Below are positions 5,780 to 64,000 of a stretch of 64,000 nucleotides of DNA, one piece after another. The stretch covers positions 1 through 64,000 of the IMG/VR virus record IMGVR_UViG_3300031669_000001, one strand, 5' to 3'. This DNA comes from a virus. How positions within the stretch are numbered: position 1 is the first letter of the stretch; each line of letters begins with the position of its first letter. The notes under the pieces are model-generated. The model had not been told where the DNA came from. It saw nothing but the letters and a program-made list of their open reading frames with translations, and did not search any database. A program made the position numbers and the translations under genes.

Positions 5780-5790
5780 CACTTTATATT

Positions 5791-10552: not shown

Positions 10553-10581
10553 TGTGATTACCTTTTAATTTCGATGGGTTA

Positions 10582-10610
10582 ATTTTATCACAATATGAAT
10601 AAAAAGTAAA
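10582..10610 (-). promoter_or_regulatory. early sigma70-like phage promoter
   Basis: -35 TTTACT, 17-nt spacer, -10 TAAAAT. Confidence 0.65.
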
Positions 10611-10618
10611 CACTTAAA

Positions 10619-10652
10619 TGAAAAAAGAGCAAGAATTTCCATCCTTGCTCTT
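10619..10652 (-). terminator. rho-independent terminator
   Basis: Stem AGAGCAAG/CTTGCTCT with an 11-nt loop, followed by a T-run on the minus strand. Lies directly after the vWA gene. Confidence 0.7.
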
Positions 10653-10670
10653 TTTGATAGGTGCTACGAT

Positions 10671-11633: not shown

Positions 11634-11634
11634 T

Positions 11635-11982
11635 TTAGTTCTCCTTTTTAAAGATAAAGTATGATGATTCTGTTTCGTAATAAGGTTGTTTTAAATACTG
11701 CACTTTCCAACCTGCCGTTTCAAAGAGTGGTTCAACGTCGAGCCAACCTTTGTTGTATGCATCTACATCTCCAAACTCTTCCTTATGAGCTTCAATGTAA
11801 GATTGAATCTGTTTGTAGACAGTCGTCTGTTTCACCTCGGCGTAATTGCTAGTTGAATTAAAATTCTTGGCGATTTCCGCGTTGAAGATTCCAATTACAA
11901 AGTATGGAATCTTCTGAGCCTTTTCCAACTTAATCTGACGCTTAAAGCTCAGTACTTCATCAGGTCCTATCGGTTCCATCAT
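11635..11982 (-). CDS. hypothetical protein
   Basis: 115-aa ORF lying between the J-domain and vWA genes, coupled to both. Confidence 0.6.
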   Translation of the reverse strand: MMEPIGPDEVLSFKRQIKLEKAQKIPYFVIGIFNAEIAKNFNSTSNYAEVKQTTVYKQIQSYIEAHKEEFGDVDAYNKGWLDVEPLFETAGWKVQYLKQPYYETESSYFIFKKEN

Positions 11983-13025
11983 TTGCTCCCATAAAGATCA
12001 TCTGCGGTCAACTTCAAATCCACGAACCTCCGAGGACCAAAGCTGTCTATTACTGTCTTGGTGTGCCAAGTCTTGTACTCTTCGTAGGCATCACCTTTGC
12101 TCATAGTTCTCAACCAACTTATCAGTTGAGGTGGAATGCTCTTGTTCATGAGCAGCTTTGAGCCTACGATGTCACCAAGTAACTGTCTAGCGGTAGCGTG
12201 AAGAAGTTCCAGATCGATTTTTGGATCAGCTTTTTGAGCATCCAGAACATCTTCTGGTGAAAATTCTACAGCTACTCCAGGTAACGCGTCAAGCGGTTTC
12301 CCTATCTCTCGAGCATACCACCAACCACCAAGCAGGTGAACAGTGTGTTCTCCTGGTGAGATCAGACAGGAATCTACTGTGATTCCAGCGTGCATCAAAT
12401 TTGCATACTTTAGATAGCAGCAGATGCTATACAGACGGCTGATCATCCAAGCAACATGCTTTGGATCAACCTCGCCGTTGAAGTGAGAGAGAACATCGCT
12501 CATCAACAATTGGTCAGGAGTCTTCTTGATCAGCATCACCAAGCGCTCGTCAGTGACCAACTCAGAATGAATTTCAGGCAACAGCTTCTTTACCTCATTC
12601 TTCATCTTGTCATCTGCAAACTTGAAGTTCTTGATGATGCGTTGAGCGTTCTTGTAGAGGTCTTCATTGTCCTTGTACAGAGAGTACGCAACGACGGTAT
12701 CACCGACGTAGATGTCTCCTAGCTCGAATGCTCTGGTGGCTTTGTACTTCAATTTGAATTTTTTGCCATCCACAGTTTTGAATACAATGACTCCTGGAGT
12801 GACCCAGGTGTCTGTGGCGAGTCTGAAGACGGCGAGATTATAGACTACATTAACGTGCGCCATAACGTCTTCATCGACCATTGGGTTCTGATCGGGGTGC
12901 CAGGCGGAGACGAGTTTACGATACTCTACCTTGGCGACTTCAGTGTCGGCGGTGAACAATTGTTCAGGTTGGTCTACAGGGATGGCTAAGATGTCATCGG
13001 CTGTGAGCGTTGAGATGTCTTTCAT
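11979..13025 (-). CDS. J-domain protein fused to a kinase-like (probably pseudokinase) domain
   Basis: YRKLVSAWHPDQNP carries the HPD J-domain signature. The C-terminal region LMHAGITVDSCLI resembles a degenerate HxDxxxxN catalytic loop. Start set at the ATG 13025 (GAGGA SD). Confidence 0.6.
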   Translation of the reverse strand: MKDISTLTADDILAIPVDQPEQLFTADTEVAKVEYRKLVSAWHPDQNPMVDEDVMAHVNVVYNLAVFRLATDTWVTPGVIVFKTVDGKKFKLKYKATRAFELGDIYVGDTVVAYSLYKDNEDLYKNAQRIIKNFKFADDKMKNEVKKLLPEIHSELVTDERLVMLIKKTPDQLLMSDVLSHFNGEVDPKHVAWMISRLYSICCYLKYANLMHAGITVDSCLISPGEHTVHLLGGWWYAREIGKPLDALPGVAVEFSPEDVLDAQKADPKIDLELLHATARQLLGDIVGSKLLMNKSIPPQLISWLRTMSKGDAYEEYKTWHTKTVIDSFGPRRFVDLKLTADDLYGSK

Positions 13026-13075
13026 CACTTCCTCACTTTGTAAAGGCTCTTGAAGAAACTCCTTCTTCAAGATAG

Positions 13076-13083
13076 TATTTATC
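13076..13083 (-). promoter_or_regulatory. possible T4-type late promoter
   Basis: GATAAATA about 50 nt upstream of ATG 13025. Confidence 0.25.
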
Positions 13084-13092
13084 TATGGAAAG

Positions 13093-13121
13093 ATTATAAT
13101 CCAATTTTTGATGAATGTACA
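13093..13121 (-). promoter_or_regulatory. early sigma70-like phage promoter
   Basis: -35 TGTACA, 17-nt spacer, -10 TATAAT. Confidence 0.55.
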
Positions 13122-13122
13122 A

Positions 13123-13266
13123 TTATTTGTTGCAACCTTGAGAAGTAGCAGCGGTGCCGACTTTACCATGCCCAGTAAGAACGGGGATAGTTACAGCGGC
13201 AATGATTCCGATGATTGCAATGACGATCATCAGTTCTGTCAAGGTAAAACCTTTAGTTGCTTTCAT
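13123..13266 (-). CDS. 47-aa prepilin-like peptide (class III signal peptide only)
   Basis: MKATKG|FTLTELMIVIAIIGIIAAVTIPVL... with Gly-1, Phe+1 and Glu+5. AAGGAG SD. Not in the ORF track. Confidence 0.65.
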   Translation of the reverse strand: MKATKGFTLTELMIVIAIIGIIAAVTIPVLTGHGKVGTAATSQGCNK

Positions 13267-13324
13267 TTCATTCTCCTTAGTATATTCACAATCAGGCGCC
13301 GAGCAGCCACATAGTGGACAATGG

Positions 13325-13465
13325 CTAGAACTTCAAGTGTTGTGTTTGATTCATTGGGATGATCTTGTCATGTTTCAAAAACGGAGTGACGAGAGCGGTG
13401 ATGATGATCAGAATTGCGACAACGATCAACATCTCGATTACTGTAAAGCCTTTGTTTGCTTTCAT
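13325..13465 (-). CDS. 46-aa prepilin-like peptide (class III signal peptide only)
   Basis: MKANKG|FTVIEMLIVVAILIIITALV... with Gly-1, Phe+1 and Glu+5. AAGGAG SD. Not in the ORF track. Confidence 0.65.
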   Translation of the reverse strand: MKANKGFTVIEMLIVVAILIIITALVTPFLKHDKIIPMNQTQHLKF

Positions 13466-13466
13466 G

Positions 13467-13742
13467 TTAACTCCTTGGTACTTCAACTAACTGGAAAATT
13501 TTCCATTTGCGATCTGGGGCTTTTGACTTGACATACTTGAGAAACTTATTCGCTGATGACCAAGTCCCATAATGAACTTCGTTACCATAGGCGTACACTC
13601 CGATAGCACCAGAATCTTTCACCCAATAGTGACCGACAGAGTAGTTGAATGACTTTTCTTCTTCTTTAGGCTTTGCTTTCTTCTTTGTCTTCTCGGTCTG
13701 ATCGATAGCTTCTTCAAGAGCCTTTATTCCGTCACTCATCAT
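13467..13742 (-). CDS. hypothetical protein
   Basis: 91-aa ORF. Confidence 0.6.
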   Translation of the reverse strand: MMSDGIKALEEAIDQTEKTKKKAKPKEEEKSFNYSVGHYWVKDSGAIGVYAYGNEVHYGTWSSANKFLKYVKSKAPDRKWKIFQLVEVPRS

Positions 13743-13751
13743 TTTCCCCGA

Positions 13752-14000
13752 TCAATAGTTGAAGTTTCTGCGCTCATCAAGTTGAGCTTGCATTGGCTTT
13801 GCGAGGTTATAAACCTCCATTACGTTCTGCATGTTGTTGCCATTACGAACAGAAACTTCATAACGAGGGTCTTGACCTGGCATGATGTAGACGGGATAAT
13901 CATCCCAGTCAAAAGTGTCCACCATCACCACCATGTGGGTTGCCTGAATCTCAACACCCTTTTCAAACCACTCTTTAATGTCTTCTCTAGTTGCTGCCAT
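13752..14000 (-). CDS. hypothetical protein
   Basis: 82-aa ORF with a GGAGAAAG SD. Confidence 0.6.
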   Translation of the reverse strand: MAATREDIKEWFEKGVEIQATHMVVMVDTFDWDDYPVYIMPGQDPRYEVSVRNGNNMQNVMEVYNLAKPMQAQLDERRNFNY

Positions 14001-14009
14001 ATCTTTCTC

Positions 14010-14276
14010 CTAAATTGGGATACCTTTATCCCAATTATCTGCGCTTGCAATTTCCTGATACTCTCGCGATTCTCCTAAAATCTCTATTTGAATCACTTCG
14101 CCTTTGCTCGTAGTAAACTCTGTGATGTCCAATGGGCTTCCAGTTAAAGCGCGCACCATCTGATCGATGATCCAAGCATTTTGCCCCAGCGTAGTCTCAA
14201 CGTTCGCGTACCGCTTGGCAATGTTGAGAGCATGAACAGCTGGAATAGGGTCCCAACAGGGATTCCTTATGAGCAT
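14010..14276 (-). CDS. hypothetical protein
   Basis: 88-aa ORF. Confidence 0.55.
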   Translation of the reverse strand: MLIRNPCWDPIPAVHALNIAKRYANVETTLGQNAWIIDQMVRALTGSPLDITEFTTSKGEVIQIEILGESREYQEIASADNWDKGIPI

Positions 14277-14277
14277 C

Positions 14278-14625
14278 TTACTTTACGATTTCAACTTTTG
14301 TGATCATGCGGCCAGATGACGTACAGAACGCTACACGCTTTGCATCGTATGTCAGCTTGACGAGTTCGCCTGTTTCATTTGCGCGCAGAAGAATCTTCAG
14401 GTCAGCAGGATTGATCACGTTGGCGTAGATGTCTTGAGTAGACATCGAACCTGTTCCATTGCGCATCACACCAAGGCTGAGATCGATGTCGATGTAGTTA
14501 TCACAAAACATTGGAGTGTTGTGAACGACGCGCTTTACTTGACCTACGACTTCTACGTCACGAGCTTGATAACCACAAGCTGTAAGGCTCATTGCGATTG
14601 CTATAACTGCTAAAATCTTTTTCAA
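14278..14625 (-). CDS. lipoprotein
   Basis: MKKILAVIAIAMSLTAC has a signal peptide with an L-T-A-C lipobox. Confidence 0.7.
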   Translation of the reverse strand: MKKILAVIAIAMSLTACGYQARDVEVVGQVKRVVHNTPMFCDNYIDIDLSLGVMRNGTGSMSTQDIYANVINPADLKILLRANETGELVKLTYDAKRVAFCTSSGRMITKVEIVK

Positions 14626-27127: not shown

Positions 27128-27667
27128 CTATTTATCTGCTTGCAAGGCTGCCGCTTTCTTTTTCTCGATAAATTTTTTCATTGAGATTGACCTTTTAACG
27201 CGAGATTCTAATAGTTGTGGCTTCCCCTTCAATTGAATTGCTAATTTAGCTTTATGTTCATTTGATAATGGACCAATTTTCTTACCCTTATTCCATGGTG
27301 TATGACCTTTAGAATTTGCTATCTGTTCTAACGATCGTGGACGAAGTTTATTACCTACAGTAGAACCGCCTCTGAGACCATCTTCAAATTTCAAGTTTGC
27401 CCATAAATCTGACGTTACTATATTCCACTGTTCAGAGACCATTAATGCAAACTCTTTGATCTCTTCTTTCTCAGTGAATAAACAATACCAAATAGTTTCA
27501 ACTTTATTCCGACCATACTTATTGATATGATTATTCCAATGAAGACCTCCACCTTTATATTTCTCAAGATTTTTATGTAAAGTTTTTCCAAGATAAAATA
27601 GCCCCCTTCCATCAGTTCTAGTTGATGGATCTGTTGGATGCCACTTGATATAAAGATAGACTGTCAT
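27128..27667 (-). CDS. GIY-YIG-like homing endonuclease with NUMOD3-type repeats
   Basis: VYLYI...FYLGKT...E, then HTPWNKGKK..SNEHKAKL repeats. AT-rich. Start 27667 lies immediately after a terminator. Paralog of 37093..37692. Confidence 0.6.
   Translation of the reverse strand: MTVYLYIKWHPTDPSTRTDGRGLFYLGKTLHKNLEKYKGGGLHWNNHINKYGRNKVETIWYCLFTEKEEIKEFALMVSEQWNIVTSDLWANLKFEDGLRGGSTVGNKLRPRSLEQIANSKGHTPWNKGKKIGPLSNEHKAKLAIQLKGKPQLLESRVKRSISMKKFIEKKKAAALQADK
27129..27136 (-). promoter_or_regulatory. possible T4-type late promoter
   Basis: GATAAATA 36 nt upstream of ATG 27093. Confidence 0.25.
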
Positions 27668-27674
27668 GTCGAAG

Positions 27675-27703
27675 AAAAAGCCTGCAAACATTGCAGGCTT
27701 TTT
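27675..27703 (-). terminator. rho-independent terminator (bidirectional shape)
   Basis: AAAAAGCCTGCAA-aca-TTGCAGGCTTTTT, directly after the LemA-like gene. Confidence 0.75.
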
Positions 27704-36685: not shown

Positions 36686-37096
36686 TTATCGAGATGGAAC
36701 GGGAAGAAACTGCCAATATGCAGGCAGAAGGGAATTTTCTTTTGCATCCCTTACCAGAAACTTAGAGTGAACCGTACCAGGGGAGAAGAATTCTTTAACG
36801 CAGTCTTCTGCAACATTAGGATCAAAGTACTTACAGCTGAAGACGTCGATGTAAGCTTCTCTGGAAATTTCCATGAAGTGACCTGTGATGTTGCTAGTGG
36901 AGATCAGTTGAACTAAACTGTAACCAACCTTTGGATCACCTTCACACATCATCACGATGGTAGGTTCTCCAACAGCAACCATGTCAATTCGCTTAACAAG
37001 TTCCTTTACAAAGTTGTAAATGTTATCGTAGCTGGAAATTTTTTCAAGATTGCAATCACCGCAGTCCAAAAGTATGTGCCATCCAAAAGTTTTCAT
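36686..37096 (-). CDS. S-adenosylmethionine decarboxylase-like pyruvoyl enzyme (SpeH/SpeD class 1 fold)
   Basis: MKTFGWHILLDCGDC, LISTSNITGH (position of the ES self-cleavage site plus the downstream His), IDVFSCKYFDPNVA. Confidence 0.6.
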   Translation of the reverse strand: MKTFGWHILLDCGDCNLEKISSYDNIYNFVKELVKRIDMVAVGEPTIVMMCEGDPKVGYSLVQLISTSNITGHFMEISREAYIDVFSCKYFDPNVAEDCVKEFFSPGTVHSKFLVRDAKENSLLPAYWQFLPVPSR

Positions 37097-37692
37097 AAAA
37101 TGCTCCTCTGCCTAGGTTTACAGTTGACACCATGCCAACGGTTAAAATTTGCTTGTCCGCCAATACTTTTAAGACATTTTGGACAAATTATTTTCTTTTT
37201 TGGTTTACTCAAGTTTGCTTTATGTTCATTTGATTTAGGAATTCCTTTACATGTTACTAAAGTTCCATCTTTACTCTTGCGTAAACGTGTTTCACTTATC
37301 TTCTTACCTACTCCAGGTCTTTTCTTACCTAAAAGTTGATTTAATCTTTTTCTTTGATGTTCATTCGTTTGAATTTTTCCAAGCGCATGACCAGGTTTAA
37401 AATCTCCACCATCTAAACCATTTTCAGGTATTAGATTCAACCAACGATCAGATTTAACAATATCTTGTTGTTGTGAAAAGAGGAATGCTATTCGTGTGCA
37501 TTCATCTTTGTCAGTGAACAATTTATACCACAAAGTTTCAACATGCTCAACACCATGACGTTTTATATGACGTCTCCAATGAATACCAGATCCTAAATAT
37601 TTGATAGGATTTTTTCCTGTGGTCTTACCAAAGTAACATTTGCCAGTAATGGCATGTTGCTTTATGTAGAGATAAGTCGCTGGAAACAGAAT
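37093..37692 (-). CDS. GIY-YIG-like homing endonuclease lacking a canonical start codon
   Basis: The frame is open from directly after the CYTH TAA (ILFPATYLYIKQH...CYFGKT...). There is no in-frame ATG, GTG or TTG before 37533. Paralog of 27128..27667. Confidence 0.5.
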   Translation of the reverse strand: MLFPATYLYIKQHAITGKCYFGKTTGKNPIKYLGSGIHWRRHIKRHGVEHVETLWYKLFTDKDECTRIAFLFSQQQDIVKSDRWLNLIPENGLDGGDFKPGHALGKIQTNEHQRKRLNQLLGKKRPGVGKKISETRLRKSKDGTLVTCKGIPKSNEHKANLSKPKKKIICPKCLKSIGGQANFNRWHGVNCKPRQRSIL

Positions 37693-53221: not shown

Positions 53222-53908
53222 ATGTATCACTTCACATATCAAACAACAAATCTTATCAATGGTCATATTTATATTGGAGTACACTCAACTCTATTATTAA
53301 ATGACGAATATCTTGGTTCTGGTAAAATACTCAAACAGGCAATCTCAAAATATGGAAAAGAACATTTCAAAAGACAAATTTTATGTTTTTATGATTCATT
53401 TGAGAAAGCACTACAGGCAGAGAAAGAGATCGTAACAGAAGAATTTATCAGCAGGCCAGATACTTATAATCTAAATATTGGAGGTCACGGCTCCTGGCAT
53501 CATAGACGCGGAATTAAAATGTTAGACGAAACGAAACGAAAAATATCTGCAAAATTAAAGGGGCGAGAATTCTCAAAAGAACACAAATCTAAATTAGGTC
53601 ATATTAAAACTATAGAAGAACGAGAAAGAATTTCTAAGGCATTAAAGGGAAGATCTTTTTCAGAAGCTCATAAACAAAAGATAAAAGAATCTCATGCAAA
53701 CGTTTCTGGAAAAAATAATCCAATGTTTGGAAAAGGACCAACAAAAGGTTCTTTTAATAGCGAAAATCATCCCCGTGCAAAAAAGATTACTATAGACGGT
53801 GTTACTTATTCTTCAGGGCTTCAAGCTGTTAAAGCTCTCGGTAGAGCTCGCGTCTATAAATTTGTCAAGTTGCGCCGTGATGATCAACAGGCTGGAATTC
53901 AAGCTTAG
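53222..53908 (+). CDS. GIY-YIG homing endonuclease with NUMOD3-like repeats (+ strand)
   Basis: HFTYQTTNLINGHIYIGVH, then repeated K..S..LKGR.FSxEHK units. AT-rich. Its 3' end overlaps the convergent gene by 44 nt. Confidence 0.8.
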   Translation: MYHFTYQTTNLINGHIYIGVHSTLLLNDEYLGSGKILKQAISKYGKEHFKRQILCFYDSFEKALQAEKEIVTEEFISRPDTYNLNIGGHGSWHHRRGIKMLDETKRKISAKLKGREFSKEHKSKLGHIKTIEERERISKALKGRSFSEAHKQKIKESHANVSGKNNPMFGKGPTKGSFNSENHPRAKKITIDGVTYSSGLQAVKALGRARVYKFVKLRRDDQQAGIQA

Positions 53909-56849: not shown

Positions 56850-57191
56850 TTAAAAGCCACTTTCATTGTCACGTTCATCGTCACCACCTGAGTTGTATGC
56901 TGCTTGTAACAAAGTCTCAAGATGCTCTATCAAGGACTTATCACCTTTAGTGAGAGCATCATAGGCTTCACGAAGCTCTTTCATCTTGGTGACAGGATCG
57001 CGTTCAGTCCAGTGAATGTAGGTGTCAGTTGCATGATATGGAAGACCGCGAGCGTTCAGACAAGGATCAACATCCTTGACGTCCACCGCCCAATCTGGGT
57101 AACATCCGCGAGAGCCTTCAGATCCGATTTTGATATCGAGAAAGCGCTGACCTTTTGGATCATCTTTGTGTGCGTAGGTAACTTCGGCCAT
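56850..57191 (-). CDS. hypothetical protein
   Basis: Start at MAEVTYAH (AAGGA SD). Confidence 0.6.
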   Translation of the reverse strand: MAEVTYAHKDDPKGQRFLDIKIGSEGSRGCYPDWAVDVKDVDPCLNARGLPYHATDTYIHWTERDPVTKMKELREAYDALTKGDKSLIEHLETLLQAAYNSGGDDERDNESGF

Positions 57192-57195
57192 GATT

Positions 57196-57477
57196 TTATC
57201 CTTGAATGAGTTCAACAAACTCAGAATAGTAGTTGTAGACTTCTTGGTAACCGGAAGAATGACCGTGTTCCCAGGCCAGCGAGAAGCACTTGTCTGCTTT
57301 TGGATGACCTACGACATCAAATTCAGCTTCAAGGTCGGCTTTGAATTTAACTTCGAGACGGGTGTTCTCGGCACGATATGCTGCACGAGCTGCACGACGT
57401 TCTGCGGCTACTGAAGGTGCTGCAGATGAATTGAATTGAGGGTACGGAAGATGATTTTCGTAGTTTGCAAAATTCAT
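57196..57477 (-). CDS. hypothetical protein
   Basis: 93-aa ORF, first after promoter 57504..57531, with an AAGGAGG SD. Confidence 0.65.
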   Translation of the reverse strand: MNFANYENHLPYPQFNSSAAPSVAAERRAARAAYRAENTRLEVKFKADLEAEFDVVGHPKADKCFSLAWEHGHSSGYQEVYNYYSEFVELIQG

Positions 57478-57503
57478 AATTACCTCCTTGTTTCGATGGA
57501 GTA

Positions 57504-57531
57504 ATTATATCACAGGCAACAAAAAAGTACA
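57504..57531 (-). promoter_or_regulatory. early sigma70-like phage promoter
   Basis: -35 TGTACT, 16-nt spacer, -10 TATAAT. Confidence 0.7.
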
Positions 57532-57536
57532 CACTT

Positions 57537-58823
57537 TTATTCGAAAGTGATCTGATCTATCTTGAAACTTTTAGATTTTGGTGAAATGTAGTGTGCAGAT
57601 GATTCTGTTGGTGTAAGCAACCAAACCCACTTTGTTGGAGCTTTAGGATTTACTGAGTCACCATAGCCATCTGTGATCACGACGACGCAGTCAGGGTAAC
57701 GACCTTGATCTTTCTGAAGCCTCAAGCATTCTTCCTCAATGATTCGAAAGCTCGTGCCGCCGCCGATTCTAACGTGATCTCCAGGTTTTACAGGCGTAAC
57801 GACCGTGTCGAAGATGTAGAGCCTAGTGTCAAATATCCTGCGTTCCTCATCGAACGCCAGAAAGACCTTCTGAAAAATTTCAATGTAAGGTAAGCAAGAT
57901 CCAGAGATGTCCATGAACACGGCTGTTAGGAGACGATCTCTTACAGGTCTTTCAACGGCATTTATGCCTGGAAGAGATGCTTTGCTGCTCCTAATCACGT
58001 CATCGAAGCGGCGACTGTCGTGAGTGAACGTCTCTACATCCTTCTCAACCTGCTTCATGCTTGTCTTTTTAAGCTTGCGAATGATGTGAGAAAAATTGAC
58101 CTTCAACTTCTTGATCTTCTCCGCGATGATGTGTTCAAGCACTCCGGCAACCTTGCCGGCCAACAGACCGCCTGAAGCGCTGAAGAATGGAGGCAAGCTC
58201 TTGATTATCTTTTCAATATCAGCGACATCCAAATCTTCAGCTAAGGTGGCGGCCATCTCTGCTCGAGCGTGCTTCTCGACTTCTGTCATCGTTCCATCAT
58301 CATGAACGTCCAAAGTAGATGGGCCTCCAGCGCCTGAACTCTTAGGTGGTTTCTTGATCAGCTCCTCGAGGTAGTAGGTGAAAGTTTCATTTCTCTTGAT
58401 GAGGATAGGGTTCTCAAAGCAAGTATCGATCCAGCAGTACTTCTTCCAATCTCTAAGGTCTTCACGATCGTAGTGGAAGAGGTCGACTATCATCTCATTG
58501 ATCGTGATGTCCTGAGCGATGTTGACTAACTCTGCAGTAGCGCCTGGAACGTTCATGCCGTCGCGGATGCCGTGATCGAGGATGACGTGCATGCACTCGT
58601 GACAAACTACAAACAACTTCTCCCTGAAGGTCAGCTTATCCCAAAATTCTTGGTTGAGCTTCATCTCCGCTTTACCTTTGCGAGGTAGCCAGACGGCAGC
58701 CGTTGGAACGCTGTCATCAAATACCACGTCAGAGAGCTCAAAGAAGGTGAAGAAGACCTTGTTATAGTCCTCTATCGAAGCTGCGATTTCCAGCTTATCC
58801 TCTGATGACATTGAACGTCTCAT
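57537..58823 (-). CDS. HExxH metallopeptidase-like domain fused to vWA-like domain (DUF2201-type)
   Basis: VVCHECMHVILDH carries HExxH. VFMDISGSC is a MIDAS-like DxSGS. ATGA-coupled to the upstream gene. Confidence 0.7.
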   Translation of the reverse strand: MRRSMSSEDKLEIAASIEDYNKVFFTFFELSDVVFDDSVPTAAVWLPRKGKAEMKLNQEFWDKLTFREKLFVVCHECMHVILDHGIRDGMNVPGATAELVNIAQDITINEMIVDLFHYDREDLRDWKKYCWIDTCFENPILIKRNETFTYYLEELIKKPPKSSGAGGPSTLDVHDDGTMTEVEKHARAEMAATLAEDLDVADIEKIIKSLPPFFSASGGLLAGKVAGVLEHIIAEKIKKLKVNFSHIIRKLKKTSMKQVEKDVETFTHDSRRFDDVIRSSKASLPGINAVERPVRDRLLTAVFMDISGSCLPYIEIFQKVFLAFDEERRIFDTRLYIFDTVVTPVKPGDHVRIGGGTSFRIIEEECLRLQKDQGRYPDCVVVITDGYGDSVNPKAPTKWVWLLTPTESSAHYISPKSKSFKIDQITFE

Positions 58824-59023
58824 GAATCAGGCCCACAATCAATTCGCCAGGGACACACTATCAAGCACGCAGTTGAGCAGTCATCTTCTCCGTGACAAGG
58901 CGGAGCTTTATCACCACGAAGTGATTTGATCTCCTCCAATAGCTTGAGTCTCTCAGGAGAGTTGTGAGCTCCTGTATTGCTCAAGAATGCCTCTTCGTCC
59001 AACAGGTCTTGTAAAATGCTCAT
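58820..59023 (-). CDS. small Cys-rich protein
   Basis: 67 aa. The C-terminus reads PPCHGEDDCSTACLIVCPWRIDCG. Confidence 0.5.
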   Translation of the reverse strand: MSILQDLLDEEAFLSNTGAHNSPERLKLLEEIKSLRGDKAPPCHGEDDCSTACLIVCPWRIDCGPDS

Positions 59024-60318
59024 AGAAAGTTCATGTCATCTACGATCTTGCGACTGTAGAGCTTCTCGTTGATGTAGTTCTTTTCTTTAGGTGTAAAGAA
59101 TCCGCCCACCTTAGCGATGATCTTGACGATCTCGTGGAAGTTTGTTTCTTTGCGAGCATCTTTTCCACCTATACCCCAGAAGATCCTGATCAAAGTCTTT
59201 TCCTGACAATTGAAAAGTACGTCTACACATCTATTTGCCAGCTTTGCTACGAGGTTGTGCTTTGTCGCGCTCAAGCCTCTGATGTCGTTTTCAAGTGAAC
59301 CACCATTCTTGTATAGCAGGTCAAGTCTAACGTTGTTTATGAGAGCTGCGGTACCTTGATTCCCCTTATCGTCTGGAAGTTTATTGATCAAATCTTCCAG
59401 AGAATTTACAACTTCAAAACCCTTCTGCCTAGCGTACACAAACTCAGTGAACGGTTCTACAAGCTCCTTAGGCATTTGCCTTCCATGCTTCTTGAAGAAG
59501 TCCACAGCTACTGGGTCGTTAGCTTTTACAAGGTCAAGCAGCTTCGTAGCGTTGTTTATGTCTGCGACGAACGCTCCCGCTTCCGCGTCATTCGTGACCT
59601 TCTTGATCTGCTCGTGGAACGGTAAGCTCTTCAGCATGCTTCGAAGAGCTGAGACATTTGATTCGGTAGGTAGGAAGTCCTCCAAGCGGCAACCATTTGC
59701 GTACGCTGCCGCTGCGTAGTCAACTCGGCGAGGAGACACCATTCTTTGAATGTCACCAGGCAAATCCTTCCACCATTGAATGAAGATCATCCCGGTGGTC
59801 GGGAATTTTGCGTTGAAGTAGTCCTCGTCTATCTTGTATGGAACTTTGATTGTAACCTGGAAGCGATCAAGTTGTGCGGGATCGATGTGATTGACTGAGT
59901 AGGTGTCGTCATCATCTTCTGGATTGATAGCTGCCCAGATAACTTTCAGATTGTTGAGCTTGTGTCCGTTGATTGACTTGAACTGAATCAGCTCCATGAC
60001 GGCGTTAATCACCTTGTCAGGTGCGCGGTTAAACTCGTCGAGCATGATCGCTTCTATCTCGTCGTTCTCACACCAAGCAGGCCTCACCAACTCAAGAGTT
60101 CGCTTGTTTACACCATCATCGATGACCTTAGGTACCCCTACAAAGTCAACCCAAGGATCGAGGGTACTTGCTGAGAAGTACTTCCAGCGATCGCCGTAAA
60201 GCTCAGTGAAAACTTCCTTAATGACGGTAGTCTTGCCGACACCGTGGAGCCCACTCAGGAGAACGTTATAGTTTAGGATAGCGTACTGTGTCAGCCTAGC
60301 TTTGTTGATGATTGCCAT
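59020..60318 (-). CDS. MoxR/AAA_5-type ATPase
   Basis: LLSGLHGVGKTT Walker A and AIMLDEFNRA Walker B. First gene after promoter 60346..60374. Confidence 0.8.
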   Translation of the reverse strand: MAIINKARLTQYAILNYNVLLSGLHGVGKTTVIKEVFTELYGDRWKYFSASTLDPWVDFVGVPKVIDDGVNKRTLELVRPAWCENDEIEAIMLDEFNRAPDKVINAVMELIQFKSINGHKLNNLKVIWAAINPEDDDDTYSVNHIDPAQLDRFQVTIKVPYKIDEDYFNAKFPTTGMIFIQWWKDLPGDIQRMVSPRRVDYAAAAYANGCRLEDFLPTESNVSALRSMLKSLPFHEQIKKVTNDAEAGAFVADINNATKLLDLVKANDPVAVDFFKKHGRQMPKELVEPFTEFVYARQKGFEVVNSLEDLINKLPDDKGNQGTAALINNVRLDLLYKNGGSLENDIRGLSATKHNLVAKLANRCVDVLFNCQEKTLIRIFWGIGGKDARKETNFHEIVKIIAKVGGFFTPKEKNYINEKLYSRKIVDDMNFL

Positions 60319-60345
60319 GATGTCTTTCTGATATGGTTGTGGTCT

Positions 60346-60374
60346 ATTATATCACGACATCAACTTAAAGTACA
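60346..60374 (-). promoter_or_regulatory. early sigma70-like phage promoter
   Basis: -35 TGTACT, 17-nt spacer, -10 TATAAT. Confidence 0.65.
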
Positions 60375-60375
60375 C

Positions 60376-60403
60376 AACAAAAAGGGCAGCTTGAGGGCTG
60401 CCC
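60376..60403 (-). terminator. rho-independent terminator
   Basis: GGGCAGC-n6-GCTGCCC then TTTTTG on the minus strand, directly after gene 60426..61025. Confidence 0.75.
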
Positions 60404-60425
60404 TAAATGAGAGGATGATTGAAGC

Positions 60426-61025
60426 TTAAGCGTAGTTAGGATTGGTGATAGTTGTACCAACCGTTGCAGCCGTAATCTTGAATCCAGATCCGTTTGTTGC
60501 AGGATATGAACTTCCAGAAACACCGATGTAAGCAGACAAAACGTCACCGGCTGTGTAGTCTTCACCACCTGTGAGAAGAGTCACAGAAGTAACAGCTCCA
60601 CCAGAAGCAGTTATCTTTGCACGAGCTCCCTTACCAGTTCCGCCAGTAAGTTGAACAACGAAGTCAGTCAGATTAGGGTAACCTGTACCACCAACCAACG
60701 AGCCAAGAGTTAGAATCTCTGGACGAGGACCAGCAGGAACGAAACTTCCAGCTTCAACGGCTGCTACGATAGCATTAAAAGCTGCAACAACGTGAGCATT
60801 GACACTTAATGTTCCTGGAGCTGCACTAGACGCAGCTGGATAATCAGTTATAACAGCAAATGAATCGCTTGCTGGACCTACATTGCTACCTACTCTGATG
60901 GTAGTTGTAGCTGCAGTAGCTGCAGTAGAATCTGTATAACTGTCGACGGTGATACCATCGAAAACGATAACGTCAGCGCTATCAGTGTGAACGTTGACTG
61001 TGTATTTTGTACCTGTACCTGCCAT
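60426..61025 (-). CDS. late Ala/Gly/Thr-rich protein (probable virion/surface protein)
   Basis: 199 aa with its own TATAAATA promoter, a strong GAGGAG SD and its own terminator. Confidence 0.65.
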   Translation of the reverse strand: MAGTGTKYTVNVHTDSADVIVFDGITVDSYTDSTAATAATTTIRVGSNVGPASDSFAVITDYPAASSAAPGTLSVNAHVVAAFNAIVAAVEAGSFVPAGPRPEILTLGSLVGGTGYPNLTDFVVQLTGGTGKGARAKITASGGAVTSVTLLTGGEDYTAGDVLSAYIGVSGSSYPATNGSGFKITAATVGTTITNPNYA

Positions 61026-61080
61026 GATGAACTCCTCTTAAATTCGTTGACGAAATGTGCGTCGATGATTGTTATGCAGT

Positions 61081-61088
61081 TATTTATA
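61081..61088 (-). promoter_or_regulatory. T4-type late promoter candidate
   Basis: Exact TATAAATA followed by an ATAACAAT box, placed directly after a terminator. Confidence 0.5.
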
Positions 61089-61095
61089 GCGATAT

Positions 61096-61125
61096 ATGAA
61101 AAAAGACAGCCGAAGCTGTCTTTTT
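61096..61125 (-). terminator. rho-independent terminator
   Basis: AAGACAGC-cgaa-GCTGTCTT then TTTTTT on the minus strand. Confidence 0.75.
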
Positions 61126-61153
61126 CGTTTTGTTACTCGGTCTAAGTTGAAAC

Positions 61154-61651
61154 TTAGATTGTTGCGCCTGTAGGACCAGTAGGAGCGTAAGGTAATGTTG
61201 GACCTGTAACTCCATTTACAACGTGCTGGAAATAACCGCCACCACCAACTGCGTAAGGACCCTGTGGAGTAGCGTTGGTATCAGCAATTACGAGATTGAT
61301 AGCTGTAACAGCATCTGCAACAAGCGTTGCAAAAGTTGTAGTCATTGCTGGAATTACTGCTTGTCCATATTCCAGGAAAACATCATAAGCGATGAATTCT
61401 TGATCTAAACTATATTGTGGTTCAACTTTAACACTACAAACGATAGCTAAATCGCCAGCTGCGGAATTTCCTGGACCGCCTCCTGTATTGATGTTAATTG
61501 GAGCAAGATATCCACTAGAAGAAAGTGGAATATCTGCTGAAGTGTTGAAAGCTGGGCTATATGTGAACTTTTCTGTCTTGATAGAATCAAGTTCAAGAGT
61601 GTTCGCTGCATCTGTGACCATGCGAATTGTTACTTTTTGACCTGTTGCCAT
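61154..61651 (-). CDS. late Ala/Gly/Thr-rich protein (probable virion/surface protein)
   Basis: 165 aa with its own late-type promoter, a GAGGAG SD and a terminator. Confidence 0.65.
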   Translation of the reverse strand: MATGQKVTIRMVTDAANTLELDSIKTEKFTYSPAFNTSADIPLSSSGYLAPININTGGGPGNSAAGDLAIVCSVKVEPQYSLDQEFIAYDVFLEYGQAVIPAMTTTFATLVADAVTAINLVIADTNATPQGPYAVGGGGYFQHVVNGVTGPTLPYAPTGPTGATI

Positions 61652-61688
61652 TTTAATGCTCCTCTAGAGAATAAATGTTAGTTGTTTT

Positions 61689-61704
61689 AGCGTTCCGGAA
61701 CGCT
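61689..61704 (-). terminator. palindromic hairpin (possible terminator/processing site)
   Basis: AGCGTTCCGGAACGCT lying between two late genes, with no clear T-tract. Confidence 0.35.
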
Positions 61705-61722
61705 TGTATTGTTATACGGAAG

Positions 61723-61730
61723 TATTTATG
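61723..61730 (-). promoter_or_regulatory. T4-type late promoter candidate
   Basis: CATAAATA followed by an ATAACAAT box. Confidence 0.45.
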
Positions 61731-61757
61731 TCTATGCTTAAAAAGTCAATGATTTTT

Positions 61758-62321
61758 TTACGCCATTGCTAAGCCAAACGCTGAATTTGCAGCTGCCAAC
61801 GCCAGACCTCTAAAATATTCTACGGTTTGAGTCGTATCTGGTCCGGCGCCTGTAAGATATAAGATTTCCACGATGAAATCCTGCGATGGAAATGGTGAGC
61901 CTGGAGTCTCTGGAGCACCGGTCATTGAAGCTGGACTGTAAAGCGCGACATAGTTGAACCCTGTCTGTCCAGCAGCCGGAAGTGGCTGAGCCATACGAGT
62001 GATTCCTGCTACGGTAGCAGTTCCTGTACCCGAGCCTACAACGTGAGGATACATTCCATAAGGAGGATAATCACCAGGGGGGTTAGCTCTTGCTACGAAT
62101 GTAACACCGACTGTATTAGAAGCTGCACCGATCAAAGTAAAGTCTGTAGTGCCGACAGTCGCTATAGTGTACGCAACGCCTACTACAAATTGGCCCGCAA
62201 CAACAGGGGCATCATCGTAGCTCCATTGCTTGTCTGCTGACATGTTATCCAGCGTAAAAGTTACAAAGCGCGGATCAGCGTGTCCGTAGATAGTTAAAAT
62301 TTTTCCTACTTGGGTTGTCAT
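61758..62321 (-). CDS. late Ala/Gly/Thr/Pro-rich protein (probable virion/surface protein)
   Basis: 187 aa with GATAAATA 29 nt upstream and a GAGGG SD. Confidence 0.65.
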   Translation of the reverse strand: MTTQVGKILTIYGHADPRFVTFTLDNMSADKQWSYDDAPVVAGQFVVGVAYTIATVGTTDFTLIGAASNTVGVTFVARANPPGDYPPYGMYPHVVGSGTGTATVAGITRMAQPLPAAGQTGFNYVALYSPASMTGAPETPGSPFPSQDFIVEILYLTGAGPDTTQTVEYFRGLALAAANSAFGLAMA

Positions 62322-62349
62322 GGTTAGACCCTCATTAATGTTCTAGTTG

Positions 62350-62357
62350 TATTTATC
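62350..62357 (-). promoter_or_regulatory. T4-type late promoter candidate
   Basis: GATAAATA. Confidence 0.4.
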
Positions 62358-62973
62358 TTGAGTTCAAGAACGATTGATAATTATAGTCGAAGTATAGTAA
62401 ATCATTTCGAAATGCGCGTTCTACAACTTTGATTGTGTCTTCACTGTATAACTTTGACCTATCTTTCAATTCATTCTTTTTAAGATTGATATTATCATGA
62501 CTTAAGTCATTCTTCAGATTATATTTTTTGCAAAATTTATCATAATCTTCAGATAGATTTTCAAATTTTAATATGTCTGTAGCTATGACTTTATCATTAT
62601 TTTCGACAAAATCATAACAAGGATTAAATTGGATTCTTTTACCTGCAAATTTTAATTCATAAGAAAGCACAAACTGTTCAAATGTCATATCAGGATTGAT
62701 ATCCGTTCTACCCAATTTTTCATATTTTAATTGTTCTTGAGTTTGATTAGTTTTAGGTCTAAATTGATAAAATTCAAAAATTGAATAGAGTCTATCAAAA
62801 GGATTCCTAACAATTGACATTATTGGTAAATGTGAATCTTCTTCTATTAAGACATTTTTAATAAATCCATGAGTTAAATAGCATTTACGTAAAAATCGCG
62901 CATTTTGTTTATCTAAACTGTTACTAATAGATACACCTGCCGTTTTGGGTATATGAATAAAAATTATTTGCAA
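62353..62973 (-). CDS. sulfotransferase (Sulfotransfer_2-like)
   Basis: [15 protein letters not shown] resembles the PAPS 5'-phosphosulfate-binding loop. Very AT-rich. TTG start overlaps the upstream gene by 10 nt. Confidence 0.55.
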
Positions 62974-63509
62974 TTTAAAACCTCATCTATTTTTTCTGAA
63001 CATAATAAAGAAGCATTAGTTTTAATTTTATCAATATCCCAATCCCACCAGCGCAATTCAAGTAATTTTTCTATCTCAATTTCTTTGAAACGATAACGAA
63101 TAATTTTTGAAGGATTACCAATAACAATTGCATAAGGTGGTATATCTTTAGCAATTACGGCTCCTGCTCCAATTACAGCTCCATGTCCTATCGTGACACC
63201 AGAAAGTATCATTGCATTAGATCCTATCCATACATCGTTCCCAATTATAGTTGGGCCTTTAGCGAAAGCTTCACCTAAATTAGAAATCCCAAAAGCTAGT
63301 CCCAACGGGAATGATGTTATATAATTAGTTCGATGTTCTCCTCCACCAAAAATTTGAATGCCATCAGCCATCGAACAAAAAGAACCTATTTTAATTTTAT
63401 CTGTATCAAGCCATAATTTTAGACTTGGTGATGACCCGTATGTAAATCTTCCAATTTCGATTCTAGGATCATCAGAAATTAAATAATCCATTACCATTAC
63501 CATTCCCAA
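62964..63509 (-). CDS. XAT-class hexapeptide-repeat acetyltransferase (CatB/Vat-like)
   Basis: [53 protein letters not shown] plus the C-terminal LLELRWWDW hallmark. The start is ambiguous (TTG 63509 or ATG 63503, 63497 or 63491). Confidence 0.8.
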
Positions 63510-64000
63510 AAATGACGTTTTAATGGTGTTCCAAGATCAAATTTATGAATGTTTGGATTGTCAGTGTGCTTTAAACCTGGAATATTCTTTACATTAAAAT
63601 GTTTGATATTTGTACGATCAACGTGCCAACCCTTTTTAGTTTCTTTAGTAGAATAGACTCTTTTTAGATATTTTTGTTTAGCATGCTGTTCACTAAGAAT
63701 AATGTAATGTCTTAAAAAGAATATATTTGGTGAAATCTTCAAATTGTGAGCATACGAATCCCATCCCAACATGTAATCTCCATTAGGATTAGTTGTTGTT
63801 CTTTTCCAAGCACGGTGGAGGCGAAACTTATTGTAAAAATAATAAGTTGACATTAGTTCAGCATAATTTTCAACGTAAAAGTCCTCTCCTGTTAGTGGTA
63901 CAAATACAATTTCATAGAAATTGATGCAGTTAAAGCCTGCTGCATCAGCTTCTACTATCCCCTCATATAACGTCTGTCCTTCTACAGAGGAACATAACCA
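63497..64000 (-). CDS. possible glycosyltransferase (C-terminal part; gene runs off the window end)
   Basis: The frame stays open from 64000 through the track's Met at 63853, so the real ORF is longer than listed. AT-rich. The GT call comes from context and a weak ...[16 protein letters not shown] pattern. Confidence 0.3.

Follow-up and report, generated by a model that had tools for sequence, protein, structure and literature searches.

What use would a bacteriophage have for a sulfotransferase, an acetyltransferase and a glycosyltransferase (GT) that are encoded side by side in a strongly AT-rich part of its genome, and what would these enzymes decorate? The window, meaning the whole 64,000-nucleotide stretch that was analysed, corresponds to positions 15–64014 of contig k141_860407 in ENA ERZ27256847 (274,244 bp) and belongs to a jumbo phage of about 274 kb. 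A second stretch of the same contig, locus L001 (20.6 kb), is identical to the window over 11,648 nt and completes the third reading frame of the AT-rich region, so that window and L001 together cover 73 kb of the 274-kb contig. A Megablast search of positions 58000–64000 against INPHARED gave no match.

The preliminary description had placed an AT-rich island between about 62350 and the window end, and a sliding-window GC run bears this out, with GC dropping from about 0.44–0.49 to 0.26–0.34. In 500-nt windows the values are 0.41–0.49 over 57000–62250 and 0.256–0.342 over 62250–64000, and in 600-nt windows the minimum is 0.262, at 62501, against a whole-window mean of 0.434 (sd 0.035). The sulfotransferase gene has the lowest GC of the 94 window genes (0.266), and the two lowest GC3 values belong to the acetyltransferase (0.17–0.18) and the sulfotransferase (0.193), the mean being 0.44 (sd 0.096). 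The AT bias extends to the amino-acid level, because the FYMINK fraction of the sulfotransferase protein is also the highest of the 94 (z +2.4).

The island was originally seen as three overlapping genes. These are present, all on the minus strand and with overlaps of 10 nt (sulfotransferase/acetyltransferase) and 1 nt (acetyltransferase/GT2), but they merely close, at its 3' end, an operon of nine genes, which continues for about 4.4 kb beyond the window. The features within the window that matter here are the following.

63497–64000, minus strand: GT2 glycosyltransferase, of which the C-terminal 167 codons lie in the window, the frame being open to nucleotide 64000
62964–63497, minus strand: CatB-related, XAT-class hexapeptide O-acetyltransferase of 177 aa, with matches to Hexapep, CatB, Vat and CatB8 in the PDB
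62353–62973, minus strand: PAPS-type sulfotransferase of 206 aa (Pfam Sulfotransfer_2), the last gene of the operon
61758–62321, minus strand: p187, small, acidic and Gly/Ala/Pro/Ser/Thr-rich, a candidate acceptor with orthologs in syntenic relatives
61154–61651, minus strand: p165, also small and Gly/Ala/Pro/Ser/Thr-rich, preceded by a ribosome-binding site and followed by a terminator of its own
60426–61025, minus strand: p199, a third small Gly/Ala/Pro/Ser/Thr-rich protein, with a C-terminal GGxGY-type module that phage fibre and baseplate proteins also have

Profile searches, together with completion of the third frame beyond nucleotide 64000, uphold the original assignment of all three enzymes. 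Over residues 2–198 the sulfotransferase scores 31.9 bits with Sulfotransfer_2 (PF03567; gathering threshold 22, E 1.9e-7), and it matches PHROG 3347 at E 4.2e-11. It contains the motifs IHIPKTAG (K10, T11, G13) and VRNPxDRxxS (R56, R61, S64), which are invariant across 24 homologs and align with those of heparan-sulfate 2-O-sulfotransferase (HS2ST), itself the best match in a PDB profile search (4e-4). The first is presumably the 5'-phosphosulfate-binding (PSB) loop and the second the 3'-phosphate-binding (3'PB) motif. An AF2 model (pLDDT 84, pTM 0.82) retrieves only sulfotransferases among its top 45 Foldseek matches in the PDB, with weak scores (E 4e-3 to 0.5, TM 0.3–0.5). By profile, motifs and fold the protein belongs with the PAPS-dependent sulfotransferases, the sulfuryl transfer itself being a predicted activity. 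It resembles HS2ST and the chondroitin and HNK-1 sulfotransferases in the PKTAG/S loop, the RxPxxRxxS motif and the fold, but is much smaller at 206 aa, soluble and without a membrane anchor, and only about 10–17% identical to them. A P-loop motif scan for APS kinase, a weak test, revealed no PAPS-synthesis gene in the 73 kb of window plus L001, and therefore sulfation would rely on host PAPS.

The acetyltransferase belongs, on profile and structural matches, to the XAT class that includes CatB and Vat. It is matched by Pfam Hexapep (4.4e-12), by the NCBIfam models CatB (8.5e-44) and Vat (2e-40), and by the PDB entries CatB8 (8j40, 4e-39) and PaXAT (1xat, 2e-34). Residues 31–170 align to CatB8 residues 53–198, and the histidine of its GGGEHR sequence aligns with the His-containing loop of CatB8. 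The protein has 177 aa when read from its ATG and 181 aa if a TTG at 63509 is used. Its homologs at NCBI are named only 'CatB-related O-acetyltransferase', and assignment as a resistance-enzyme equivalog was rejected, since it reaches 149 bits with CatB, where 350 are required, and 138 with Vat, where 300 are required.

That the best named matches of the acetyltransferase are the CatB and Vat resistance enzymes, and that the closest solved structures to the sulfotransferase by fold are the cytosolic small-molecule SULTs, raises the idea of an acetylation of the chloramphenicol or streptogramin type, in which the two enzymes would act on a metabolite or antibiotic quite apart from the GTs. This is very unlikely. 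The acetyltransferase falls far under both equivalog cut-offs, lacks the first 20–30 or so residues present in the CatB/Vat enzymes and belongs to a short 'CatB-related' family whose cellular context is an O-antigen cluster, whilst the sulfotransferase is nearest by sequence profile to HS2ST, a carbohydrate sulfotransferase. Moreover, the overlaps couple both genes translationally to the GTs, and a methyltransferase, an acetyltransferase and a sulfotransferase also travel together in locus L087.

The third reading frame proves to encode a GT2 enzyme of 263 aa (L001 8686–9477), which starts about 288 nt past the window end. In Pfam the complete protein scores 38.7 bits with Glycos_transf_2 (threshold 23.3, E 1.3e-9) and is also matched by Glyco_tranf_2_4 (4.6e-8), and it has a DAD (DXD) motif within 'HADADEW', just upstream of the window edge. 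The operon of about 6 kb begins with two paralogous GT-A enzymes, a GT2 and a 244-aa protein, and continues with a SAM methyltransferase (Methyltransf_24/TylF-like), a GT1-like enzyme, the GT2 described above, the CatB-related O-acetyltransferase and the Sulfotransfer_2 sulfotransferase, giving five GTs, one unassigned protein, a methyltransferase, an acetyltransferase and a sulfotransferase. Neighbouring genes overlap by 1–35 nt. The nine enzymes are predicted to be soluble, and hydropathy shows them to be without membrane segments: the highest 19-residue value is at most 1.35, the beta-helix of the acetyltransferase excepted. An RNR-like gene adjoins the operon without a break, and this points to an early or middle timing of expression, not a late one.

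Two familiar types of surface-glycan locus were considered and rejected. A complete O-antigen or capsule cluster is not present, as neither L001 (20.6 kb) nor the window contains an initiating phosphoglycosyltransferase, Wzx/Wzy or Wzm/Wzt, and no flippase, polymerase, initiating phosphoglycosyltransferase or transporter lies within 10 kb of the operon in L001. A seroconversion module of the GtrABC or Oac kind is likewise discounted, since the cluster proteins have no membrane-like segment and no match to GtrA or Acyl_transf_3.

The enzymes may nonetheless remodel the surface glycans of the host. They would then modify undecaprenyl-linked O-antigen or capsule intermediates at the cytoplasmic face by extending, methylating, acetylating and sulfating them, a host ABC transporter would export the product, and the outcome would be to block superinfection or the adsorption of progeny to debris. 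In Stenotrophomonas rhizophila the gene for a 55%-identical homolog of the acetyltransferase is flanked by those for Wzt and Methyltransf_24, within an O-antigen cluster that includes Wzm/Wzt and GT genes. The NCBIfam matches of the phage GTs, all weak, are to exopolysaccharide (EPS), O-antigen and colanic-acid enzymes, the cellular relatives of the sulfotransferase occur in aquatic Bacteroidota and Proteobacteria, and the convention for GT clusters of cyanophages is to interpret them as serving cell-wall modification (PMC12801897). Co-transcription with early-type genes would also suit a role during infection. Against this, the operon itself provides no initiating transferase, flippase, polymerase or transporter, its five GTs exceed the needs of simple tailoring, and the classical seroconversion enzymes GtrABC and Oac are membrane proteins whereas none of the operon enzymes is. 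Host remodelling also leaves unexplained a conserved linkage between the core GT genes and the p187, p165 and p199 trio, which is kept across relatives ranging in GC from 0.31 to 0.55. It is regarded as the main alternative to the reading preferred below, possible but doubtful.

This linkage becomes apparent when related loci are compared. As the synteny of relatives and GC3 show, the last six operon genes (4.2 kb) are an insertion into an older conserved block, the order of which is GT genes, p187, p165, p199, a MoxR ATPase and a VWA protein. The GC3 of the core GTs is 0.40–0.41, as against 0.17–0.35 for the inserted genes. In locus L171 (GC 0.31) a homolog of the paralogous GT-A enzymes (GTa/b, 7e-40) and a homolog of GT2_184 (1.7e-75) are followed by p187, p165, p199, the AAA ATPase and the VWA protein; the AT-rich genes are missing and the core GT genes directly abut p187. 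In locus L170 the AT-rich gene that precedes p187 is a different one. In L085/L086 and in a JGI contig, p187 and p165 are separated by Methyltransf_23 genes, to which L085/L086 add a gene for FkbM (Methyltransf_21). The L170 upstream fragment gives the impression of a GT9 C-terminus; together with the 244-aa operon protein and a 308-aa protein of L085 it has no sequence match in Pfam or the PDB. No direct repeats flank the 4.2-kb insertion, the only duplication seen being the GTa/GTb tandem, and the region around the homologous ATPase in phiRSL1 is not syntenic for the trio.

The AT-rich end is the youngest, recently acquired part of the operon. Horizontal acquisition, which had been proposed from base composition, is supported, with the synteny of L171 weighing more than the composition. 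Viral relatives reach 39–46% identity and cellular ones at most 33%, and the AT-rich signature marks gene flow in an AT-rich, largely viral gene pool. What lies between a zf-DksA gene and p187 varies generally, and enzymes and trio could accordingly be neighbours through an insertion hot spot and not through a functional link. The AT-rich genes might also be neutral or decaying cargo, recent hitch-hikers with no role for the phage, as their strongly unameliorated composition and the variation of the slot between relatives would allow. Such an explanation has very little to commend it, for all nine reading frames are intact and packed with coupling-type overlaps, the catalytic motifs are kept in the sulfotransferase (PSB and 3'PB loops), in the GTs (DXD) and in the acetyltransferase (loop histidine), and the acetyltransferase–sulfotransferase pair recurs intact in another contig at 69% and 76% identity.

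Sulfotransferases had been thought very unusual phage cargo, a view that does not hold: at least 343 IMG/VR stretches encode relatives of the enzyme in an alignment-based scan, there is a PHROG family, and published papers list them. Single-sequence IMG/VR scans with the ATPase or the sulfotransferase gave no matches, and tblastn of the sulfotransferase against phage records gave no more than two matches, to records of huge phages that carry no annotation, at 25% identity. Viral sulfotransferases are recognised as auxiliary genes, and a 2023 list calls their biological function in phages unclear (PMC10580990). Across about 40 distinct viral contigs the commonest nearest neighbours of the homologs are FkbM methyltransferases, further sulfotransferases, GT2, Methyltransf_24, GT25, GT8, GT1 and GT17, and in locus L009 GT11, GT1, FkbM, sulfotransferase, GT17, GT2 and GT10 occur together. 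Other enzymes of the present cluster near sulfotransferase homologs, in viral or cellular loci, are confined to L009 (GT1), L087 (acetyltransferase) and five weak cellular matches. The association of the sulfotransferase family with glycan genes holds at family level only. Predicted sugar-decorating gene islands are common in environmental viruses.

Phage glycans may also be placed on DNA, and in this case the GTs and tailoring enzymes would attach a decorated glycan to a modified base so as to evade restriction. Phage GT-A and GT-B enzymes do make multi-sugar DNA glycans (bioRxiv 10.1101/2023.12.21.572611), and the lineage commits genes to the chemistry of DNA and nucleotides: L085/L086 encode a 5-hmdU DNA kinase domain (HMUDK_hel), the JGI relative has a weak T4-glucosyltransferase-like match, and the window carries a PurA/PurZ-like gene, a dCMP deaminase and a nucleoside deoxyribosyltransferase. 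Set against these are the absence of a ThyA-like hydroxymethylase, 5mYOX/TET, C5-methyltransferase or HMUDK among the reading frames of at least 110 aa in window and L001, and the fact that the DNA-glycan paper mentions neither sulfation nor acetyltransferases (bioRxiv 10.1101/2023.12.21.572611). The neighbours of the sulfotransferase homologs are sugar methyltransferases and GTs, not DNA-modification genes. Hypermodification of DNA is considered unlikely.

The genes that lie directly downstream of the operon offer a different type of acceptor. The start of p187 is 31 nt past the sulfotransferase stop, behind a GAGGG ribosome-binding site and with no terminator in the gap, whereas terminators or terminator-like hairpins follow p165 (61100–61125) and p199 (60383–60404). 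A promoter motif, ATAACAAT, that seemed to be shared upstream of p165 and p199 was discarded as not enriched (4 matches against 2.9 expected). The p187 protein carries a 'GTTDFT' module of about 45 aa that recurs as an insert in SU10-adaptor, tail-collar and gp6-connector proteins and is found in a 'virion structural protein' of cyanophage S-TIM54. Its AF2 model (pLDDT 69.6) has a low-confidence Ser/Thr/Pro loop at residues 117–143; against the PDB it gave nothing meaningful and no solved homolog, and against BFVD it gave uncharacterised Caudovirales proteins, mostly partial, the best superposing over about 70 columns, which is the size of a shared mini-domain. A metagenome scan with p187 found a single full-length relative, already known, the others sharing the mini-domain only. 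The p165 protein is conserved in L170 (3e-70), L171 (1e-43) and L085 (4e-16), and its N-terminus resembles that of p199 (E 3e-4). For p199 there are PHROG matches to a tail fibre (2e-6), a baseplate wedge (1e-5) and a virion structural protein, and tblastn matches to a P-SSM7 'structural protein' and an S-RSM4 'tail fiber protein'. These similarities of the trio to structural proteins are at the level of modules, covering 20–34% of the query, and on this basis p187, p165 and p199 are plausibly virion-type proteins with neck, tail and fibre modules.

The reading favoured here, tentatively and at somewhat less than an even chance, is that the operon glycosylates the phage's own virion-type proteins in the cytoplasm with a methylated, acetylated and sulfated glycan. 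In the cytoplasm the GTs would build a short oligosaccharide from nucleotide sugars of the host, and this chain would be tailored with methyl groups from SAM, O-acetyl groups from acetyl-CoA and sulfate from host PAPS. As acceptor, the small Ser/Thr/Gly/Ala/Pro-rich proteins of the genes directly downstream, one or several of them, are the most likely and, as the modules of the trio are typical of exposed neck, tail and fibre proteins, progeny virions would bear a glycan coat that is anionic and differs from strain to strain. Between relatives there is variation in the enzyme genes on either side of p187, which points to diversifying selection on the structure of the glycan, in the manner of an O-antigen. 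A more specific proposal, that p187, p165 and p199 are dedicated carriers of a sulfated, O-acetylated and O-methylated coat whose flanking enzyme genes are swapped as in an O-antigen locus, is more speculative and less probable. The recognisable genes of the 64-kb window are those of replication and nucleotide metabolism, with no capsid, portal, terminase or sheath genes, and the occurrence of the closest cellular homologs of the acetyltransferase in O-antigen clusters speaks against glycosylation of virion proteins, fitting the remodelling of host glycans equally well.

Known systems provide partial parallels. In mycobacteriophages, soluble GTs encoded by the phage act in the cytoplasm on its own virion proteins and need neither a flippase nor an oligosaccharyltransferase (Freeman et al. 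2023, cited in PMC12619734 and PMC12801897); the glycans are described as sitting at the C-termini of capsid and tail-tube subunits (PMC12619734). As in that system, the present operon has predicted soluble GTs without export machinery; it differs in having five GTs along with methyl-, acetyl- and sulfotransferases, and in that the candidate acceptors are separate small proteins. By enzyme class there is a likeness to the Megavirinae clusters (12 genes in Moumouvirus australiensis, 21 in Cotonvirus), in which several GTs are likewise accompanied by an acetyltransferase and by a sulfotransferase (Ma461), the sulfation not having been validated experimentally (PMC10117803). Those clusters are thought to decorate the virion surface fibrils and differ between clades (PMC10117803), but they belong to viruses with eukaryotic hosts and themselves encode nucleotide-sugar synthesis and a SAT/APS kinase for PAPS, genes of which none was seen here in 73 kb.

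The AT-rich marine islands of the cyanomyoviruses S-SCSM2R, S-SCSM1 and P-SSM2 (PMC12801897) and locus L009 are similar in the number of their GT families. L009 shares with the operon a sulfotransferase (43% identical) and a homolog of the GT1-like enzyme (4.7e-41) and has in addition an FkbM methyltransferase; the islands and L009 differ in their GT10, GT11, GT17 and GT25 families, and no XAT acetyltransferase was seen in L009. The S. rhizophila O-antigen locus (L088) has the CatB-related acetyltransferase, Methyltransf_24 and GT2/GT1 side by side, as does the phage, but is chromosomal and includes a Wzm/Wzt exporter, whereas the phage operon has neither exporter nor initiating enzyme and adds a sulfotransferase.

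The locus is a compact case, in which a soluble operon lies directly upstream of three candidate acceptors and natural variants are at hand that lack the tailoring genes (L171) or have different ones (L170, L085). If the glycan coat is real, sulfated glycoprotein virions would be known from a bacteriophage for the first time, and the widespread and uncharacterised viral sulfotransferases would receive their first assigned function. Sulfation of virion proteins would give the particles a charged glycan shield, sulfation of the host envelope would provide a route to superinfection exclusion, and sulfation of DNA would constitute a new base hypermodification. Should none of these hold, the locus would be one more horizontally acquired cassette; any one of them would give the related glycan-gene islands of IMG/VR a role.

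The base composition changes abruptly towards the end of the window, GC falling from 0.41–0.49 between 57000 and 62250 to 0.256–0.342 from 62250 onwards (500-nt windows); the mean of the whole window is 0.434, and in 600-nt windows the sd is 0.035 and the lowest value, 0.262, lies at 62501. The compositional break is sharp and real, and these values bear out the visible drop from about 62350 reported in the preliminary description, as do the coordinates the three overlapping genes placed there, the third open to nt 64000. The genes concerned, with the trio of small proteins downstream, are as follows.

62353–62973, minus strand, sulfotransferase gene, 206 aa, N-terminus [15 protein letters not shown]
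62964–63497, minus strand, acetyltransferase gene, 177 aa counted from ATG
63497–64000, minus strand, glycosyltransferase frame, no stop up to nt 64000
61758–62321, minus strand, p187
61154–61651, minus strand, p165
60426–61025, minus strand, p199

Overlaps of 10 nt and 1 nt, respectively, join the sulfotransferase gene to the acetyltransferase gene and the latter to the glycosyltransferase frame. GC is lower in the sulfotransferase gene (0.266) than in any other of the 94 genes of the window, GC3 reaches its two lowest values in the acetyltransferase (0.18) and sulfotransferase (0.19) genes (mean 0.44, sd 0.096), and no other protein is as rich in FYMINK residues as the sulfotransferase (z +2.4). 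Low GC3 by itself is no proof of foreign origin here, since the neighbouring p165 and p199 genes also have values of 0.23–0.26, with high GC1 and GC2. The remaining AT-rich, low-GC3 genes, at 27128–27691 (minus), 37093–37533 (minus) and 53222–53908 (plus), encode three paralogous NUMOD3/GIY-YIG-type homing endonucleases, so that the other compositional dips mark mobile endonuclease genes; all three are homologous to the endonuclease that splits the RNR genes of a relative, L085.

A protein identical to the sulfotransferase is encoded by the 274,244-bp ENA contig ERZ27256847 k141_860407, from which a 20.6-kb locus (L001) shares 11,648 nt with the window without a mismatch and reaches about 9 kb beyond nt 64000. 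Annotation of this extension, as had been proposed, reveals that the three window-end genes close a nine-gene run (L001 4629–10621) in which neighbours overlap by 1–35 nt and none of the encoded proteins has a membrane-like segment.

Proteins encoded by the nine-gene run
GTa and GTb, 211 and 221 aa, GT-A paralogs, mutual identity 57%
GT2_184, 184 aa, GT2
unk_244, 244 aa, no match
MT_202, 202 aa, Methyltransf_24/TylF-like
GT1_303, 303 aa, GT1-like
GT2_263, 263 aa, GT2, completed version of the frame open at nt 64000
AT_177, 177 aa, acetyltransferase
ST_206, 206 aa, sulfotransferase

PHROG matches in the window include a DNA ligase, a PurA/PurZ-like gene, a nucleotidyltransferase and an ADP-ribosylglycohydrolase, further phage-type genes encode a clamp loader, a PolIII-alpha fragment, RNA ligase, SLT, dCMP deaminase and AdoMet decarboxylase, and the MoxR ATPase is 40–44% identical to homologs in the jumbo phages phiRSL1 and BCSR5 and an uncultured huge phage. 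A jumbo phage is the well-supported source, though not a proven one, as no structural gene was recognised within the 64-kb window. The PurA/PurZ-like gene (9108–10367, minus, 419 aa) matches PHROG 1211 (1e-66), annotated as PurZ-type for 2-aminoadenine/Z-base DNA synthesis, its best PDB matches are ordinary PurA enzymes (1e-22) and its neighbourhood showed no recognisable DatZ or MazZ; PurZ and PurA are both candidates. The S-adenosylmethionine decarboxylase gene (36686–37096, minus; AdoMet_dc, 1.5e-17) lies inside the phage replication region and might be linked to polyamine synthesis or polyamine-type DNA modification. Past the window end, L001 1–1497 (contig ~71.5–73 kb) encodes a 608-aa CofD-family protein and, next to it, a 282-aa MobA/GlmU-like nucleotidyltransferase; a JGI relative keeps both, adjoining a weak T4-glucosyltransferase-like match and a methyltransferase, and this CofC/CofD-like pair could supply a phospho-linked modification.

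The three enzyme calls of the preliminary description all stand. The sulfotransferase exceeds the Pfam gathering threshold for Sulfotransfer_2, matches PHROG 3347 and has invariant IHIPKTAG and VRNPxDRxxS motifs; the best PDB match of a 24-homolog profile is heparan-sulfate 2-O-sulfotransferase (4e-4), and the top 45 PDB matches of its AF2 model (pLDDT 84) are all sulfotransferases, with weak scores. The completed glycosyltransferase passes the GT2 threshold and contains a DXD motif. The acetyltransferase, judged by its matches to CatB (8.5e-44), Vat (2e-40) and the CatB8 structure (4e-39), clearly falls in the XAT class. It scores far under the equivalog cut-offs of resistance enzymes and belongs to a very large family of ~185-aa proteins that NCBI names ‘CatB-related O-acetyltransferase’, whilst a 55%-identical protein of Stenotrophomonas rhizophila is encoded in an O-antigen cluster between Wzm/Wzt and a Methyltransf_24 gene with GTs. 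Its role is therefore likely to be glycan O-acetylation rather than antibiotic resistance.

The proposed horizontal acquisition is supported by the synteny of relatives, compared where they retain the conserved block p187–p165–p199–MoxR ATPase–VWA protein, and by a GC3 split. These relatives differ in the genes that flank p187. In L171 (GC 0.31) homologs of GTa/b (7e-40) and GT2_184 (1.7e-75) are followed directly by p187, and the closest relative, L170 (p187 84% identical), has another AT-rich ORF upstream with no identity assigned. L085/L086 (GC 0.55) and the JGI contig carry class I RNR genes upstream of p187, and between p187 and p165 a protein of 301–308 aa without assigned function and a Methyltransf_23 gene, joined in L085/L086 by an FkbM methyltransferase. 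These differing flanks show that the stretch from unk_244 through the sulfotransferase gene, six genes and 4.2 kb long, was inserted into an older arrangement in which GT genes preceded the trio, and GC3 agrees, at 0.40–0.41 for the three core GTs and 0.17–0.35 for the inserted genes. The tailoring genes are modular: in contig L087 (GC 0.33) Methyltransf_24, acetyltransferase (69% identical) and sulfotransferase (76% identical) genes are contiguous, without the two GTs that lie between them here. The closest sulfotransferase relatives in virus-like contigs (L002, L006–L009) are 39–46% identical and the best cellular ones at most 33%, so that the donor would more probably have belonged to an AT-rich pool of viral genes than have been a host from which the gene was captured directly.

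The interval from the zf-DksA gene to p187 is a plasticity zone, since its RNR-like and DUF1289 genes are unlike the class I RNR of L085. The RNR-like gene (L001 2418–4629, 619 aa, C-terminus CSGGGCEIV) has a faint Ribonuc_red_lgC match only, and its product has no similarity to the L085 large subunit by phmmer; no small subunit gene follows it, a DUF1289 protein (4.6e-15) being encoded there instead. A class II RNR is one guess at its identity. At the position that other genes occupy in this phage, L085 1015–2531 and L086 627–2143 encode DUF488-N3a and a 5-hmdU DNA kinase helical domain (HMUDK_hel).

Sulfotransferases had been called very unusual phage cargo, a view that does not hold. Relatives are encoded in at least 343 IMG/VR stretches, a PHROG family exists, and sulfotransferases are listed among viral auxiliary genes with a function that ‘remains unclear’ (PMC10580990, PMC8290583); in environmental data the gene is not unusual. 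A survey of 150 proteins, encoded by the two closest ORFs to the left and to the right of sulfotransferase homologs in ~40 different viral contigs, found FkbM methyltransferase (5), Sulfotransfer_2 (5), GT2 (4) and Methyltransf_24 (4) as the commonest Pfam families, followed by Nucleotid_trans (3), Methyltransf_23 (3) and GT25, GT8, TylF and GT1 (2 each). The marine viral contig L009 (IMG/VR 3300028129_000762, 89 kb, GC ~0.25) has a 10-kb island (4168–14417) of GT11, GT1-like, FkbM, sulfotransferase, GT17, GT47/RXYLT1-like, GT2, GT10 and GT11 genes; this glycosyltransferase set is eukaryote-flavoured, and its GT1-like protein is homologous to that of the nine-gene run. Like the phage locus, the fibril-glycosylation clusters of Megavirinae giant viruses contain a sulfotransferase and an acetyltransferase; sulfation there is unvalidated (PMC10117803).

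The p187 gene lies 31 nt from the sulfotransferase gene with no terminator between. p165 and p199 each have a strong AGGAG-type ribosome-binding site, with spacers of 106–128 nt, and strong intrinsic-terminator hairpins follow p199 (60383–60404) and p165 (61100–61125), so that each seems to form a unit of its own with high expression, in contrast to the close packing of the enzyme operon. All three proteins are acidic, with 30–33% Gly+Ala+Pro and 17–24% Ser+Thr. p187 contains a ~45-aa ‘GTTDFT’ mini-domain that also interrupts SU10-adaptor, tail-collar and gp6-connector proteins, as well as a cyanophage virion structural protein, and p199 resembles fibre and baseplate PHROGs and structural proteins of cyanophages at its C-terminus. 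The mini-domain (p187 residues ~40–104, ~45–65 aa, consensus AGxFVxGxxYxIxxVGTTDFTxIGAxxNTxGxxFxATGxGxGTGTA) recurs across metagenomes, at more than 300 loci, as an insert within phage neck and tail proteins that are otherwise unrelated; in p187 it escaped every Pfam model, and it would seem to be a mobile virion module not described before. Next to p187 there are carbohydrate or methyl-tailoring genes in four of six lineages (this phage, L171, L085/L086 and the JGI contig), but not in L173/L174, and the upstream gene of L170 has no assigned identity.

The leading reading, with a probability a little short of even, is that the soluble phage enzymes would glycosylate the phage's own virion-type proteins in the cytoplasm, with p187, p165 and p199 as acceptors of the phage-made glycan. 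A cytoplasmic acceptor is favoured because all the enzymes are soluble and L001 contains no initiating transferase, flippase, polymerase or exporter, and the trio because it lies immediately downstream, is rich in Ser/Thr/Gly/Ala/Pro, shares modules with virion proteins through p187 and p199, and has carbohydrate or methyl-tailoring genes beside p187 in those four lineages. Against this, no structural module could be recognised in the window, the enzyme operon is contiguous with the RNR-like gene, the trio is only putatively located in the virion, and in cells the acetyltransferase has its kin among O-antigen enzymes; remodelling of a host-surface glycan is unlikely, if still appreciable. HMUDK_hel is a hallmark of thymidine hypermodification, no homolog was found in the window, and glycan hypermodification of DNA is very improbable. 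Slimmer still are the chances that the enzymes modify a small molecule or, equally, that the genes are neutral cargo, and a small share of the probability is given to none of these readings.

The locus belongs to a known class of virus-encoded glycan-building and tailoring islands with a sulfotransferase, a class whose function is putative. It is a good experimental entry point because genes for three small candidate carrier proteins are linked to it closely and in a conserved manner, and because natural variants without the tailoring genes exist.
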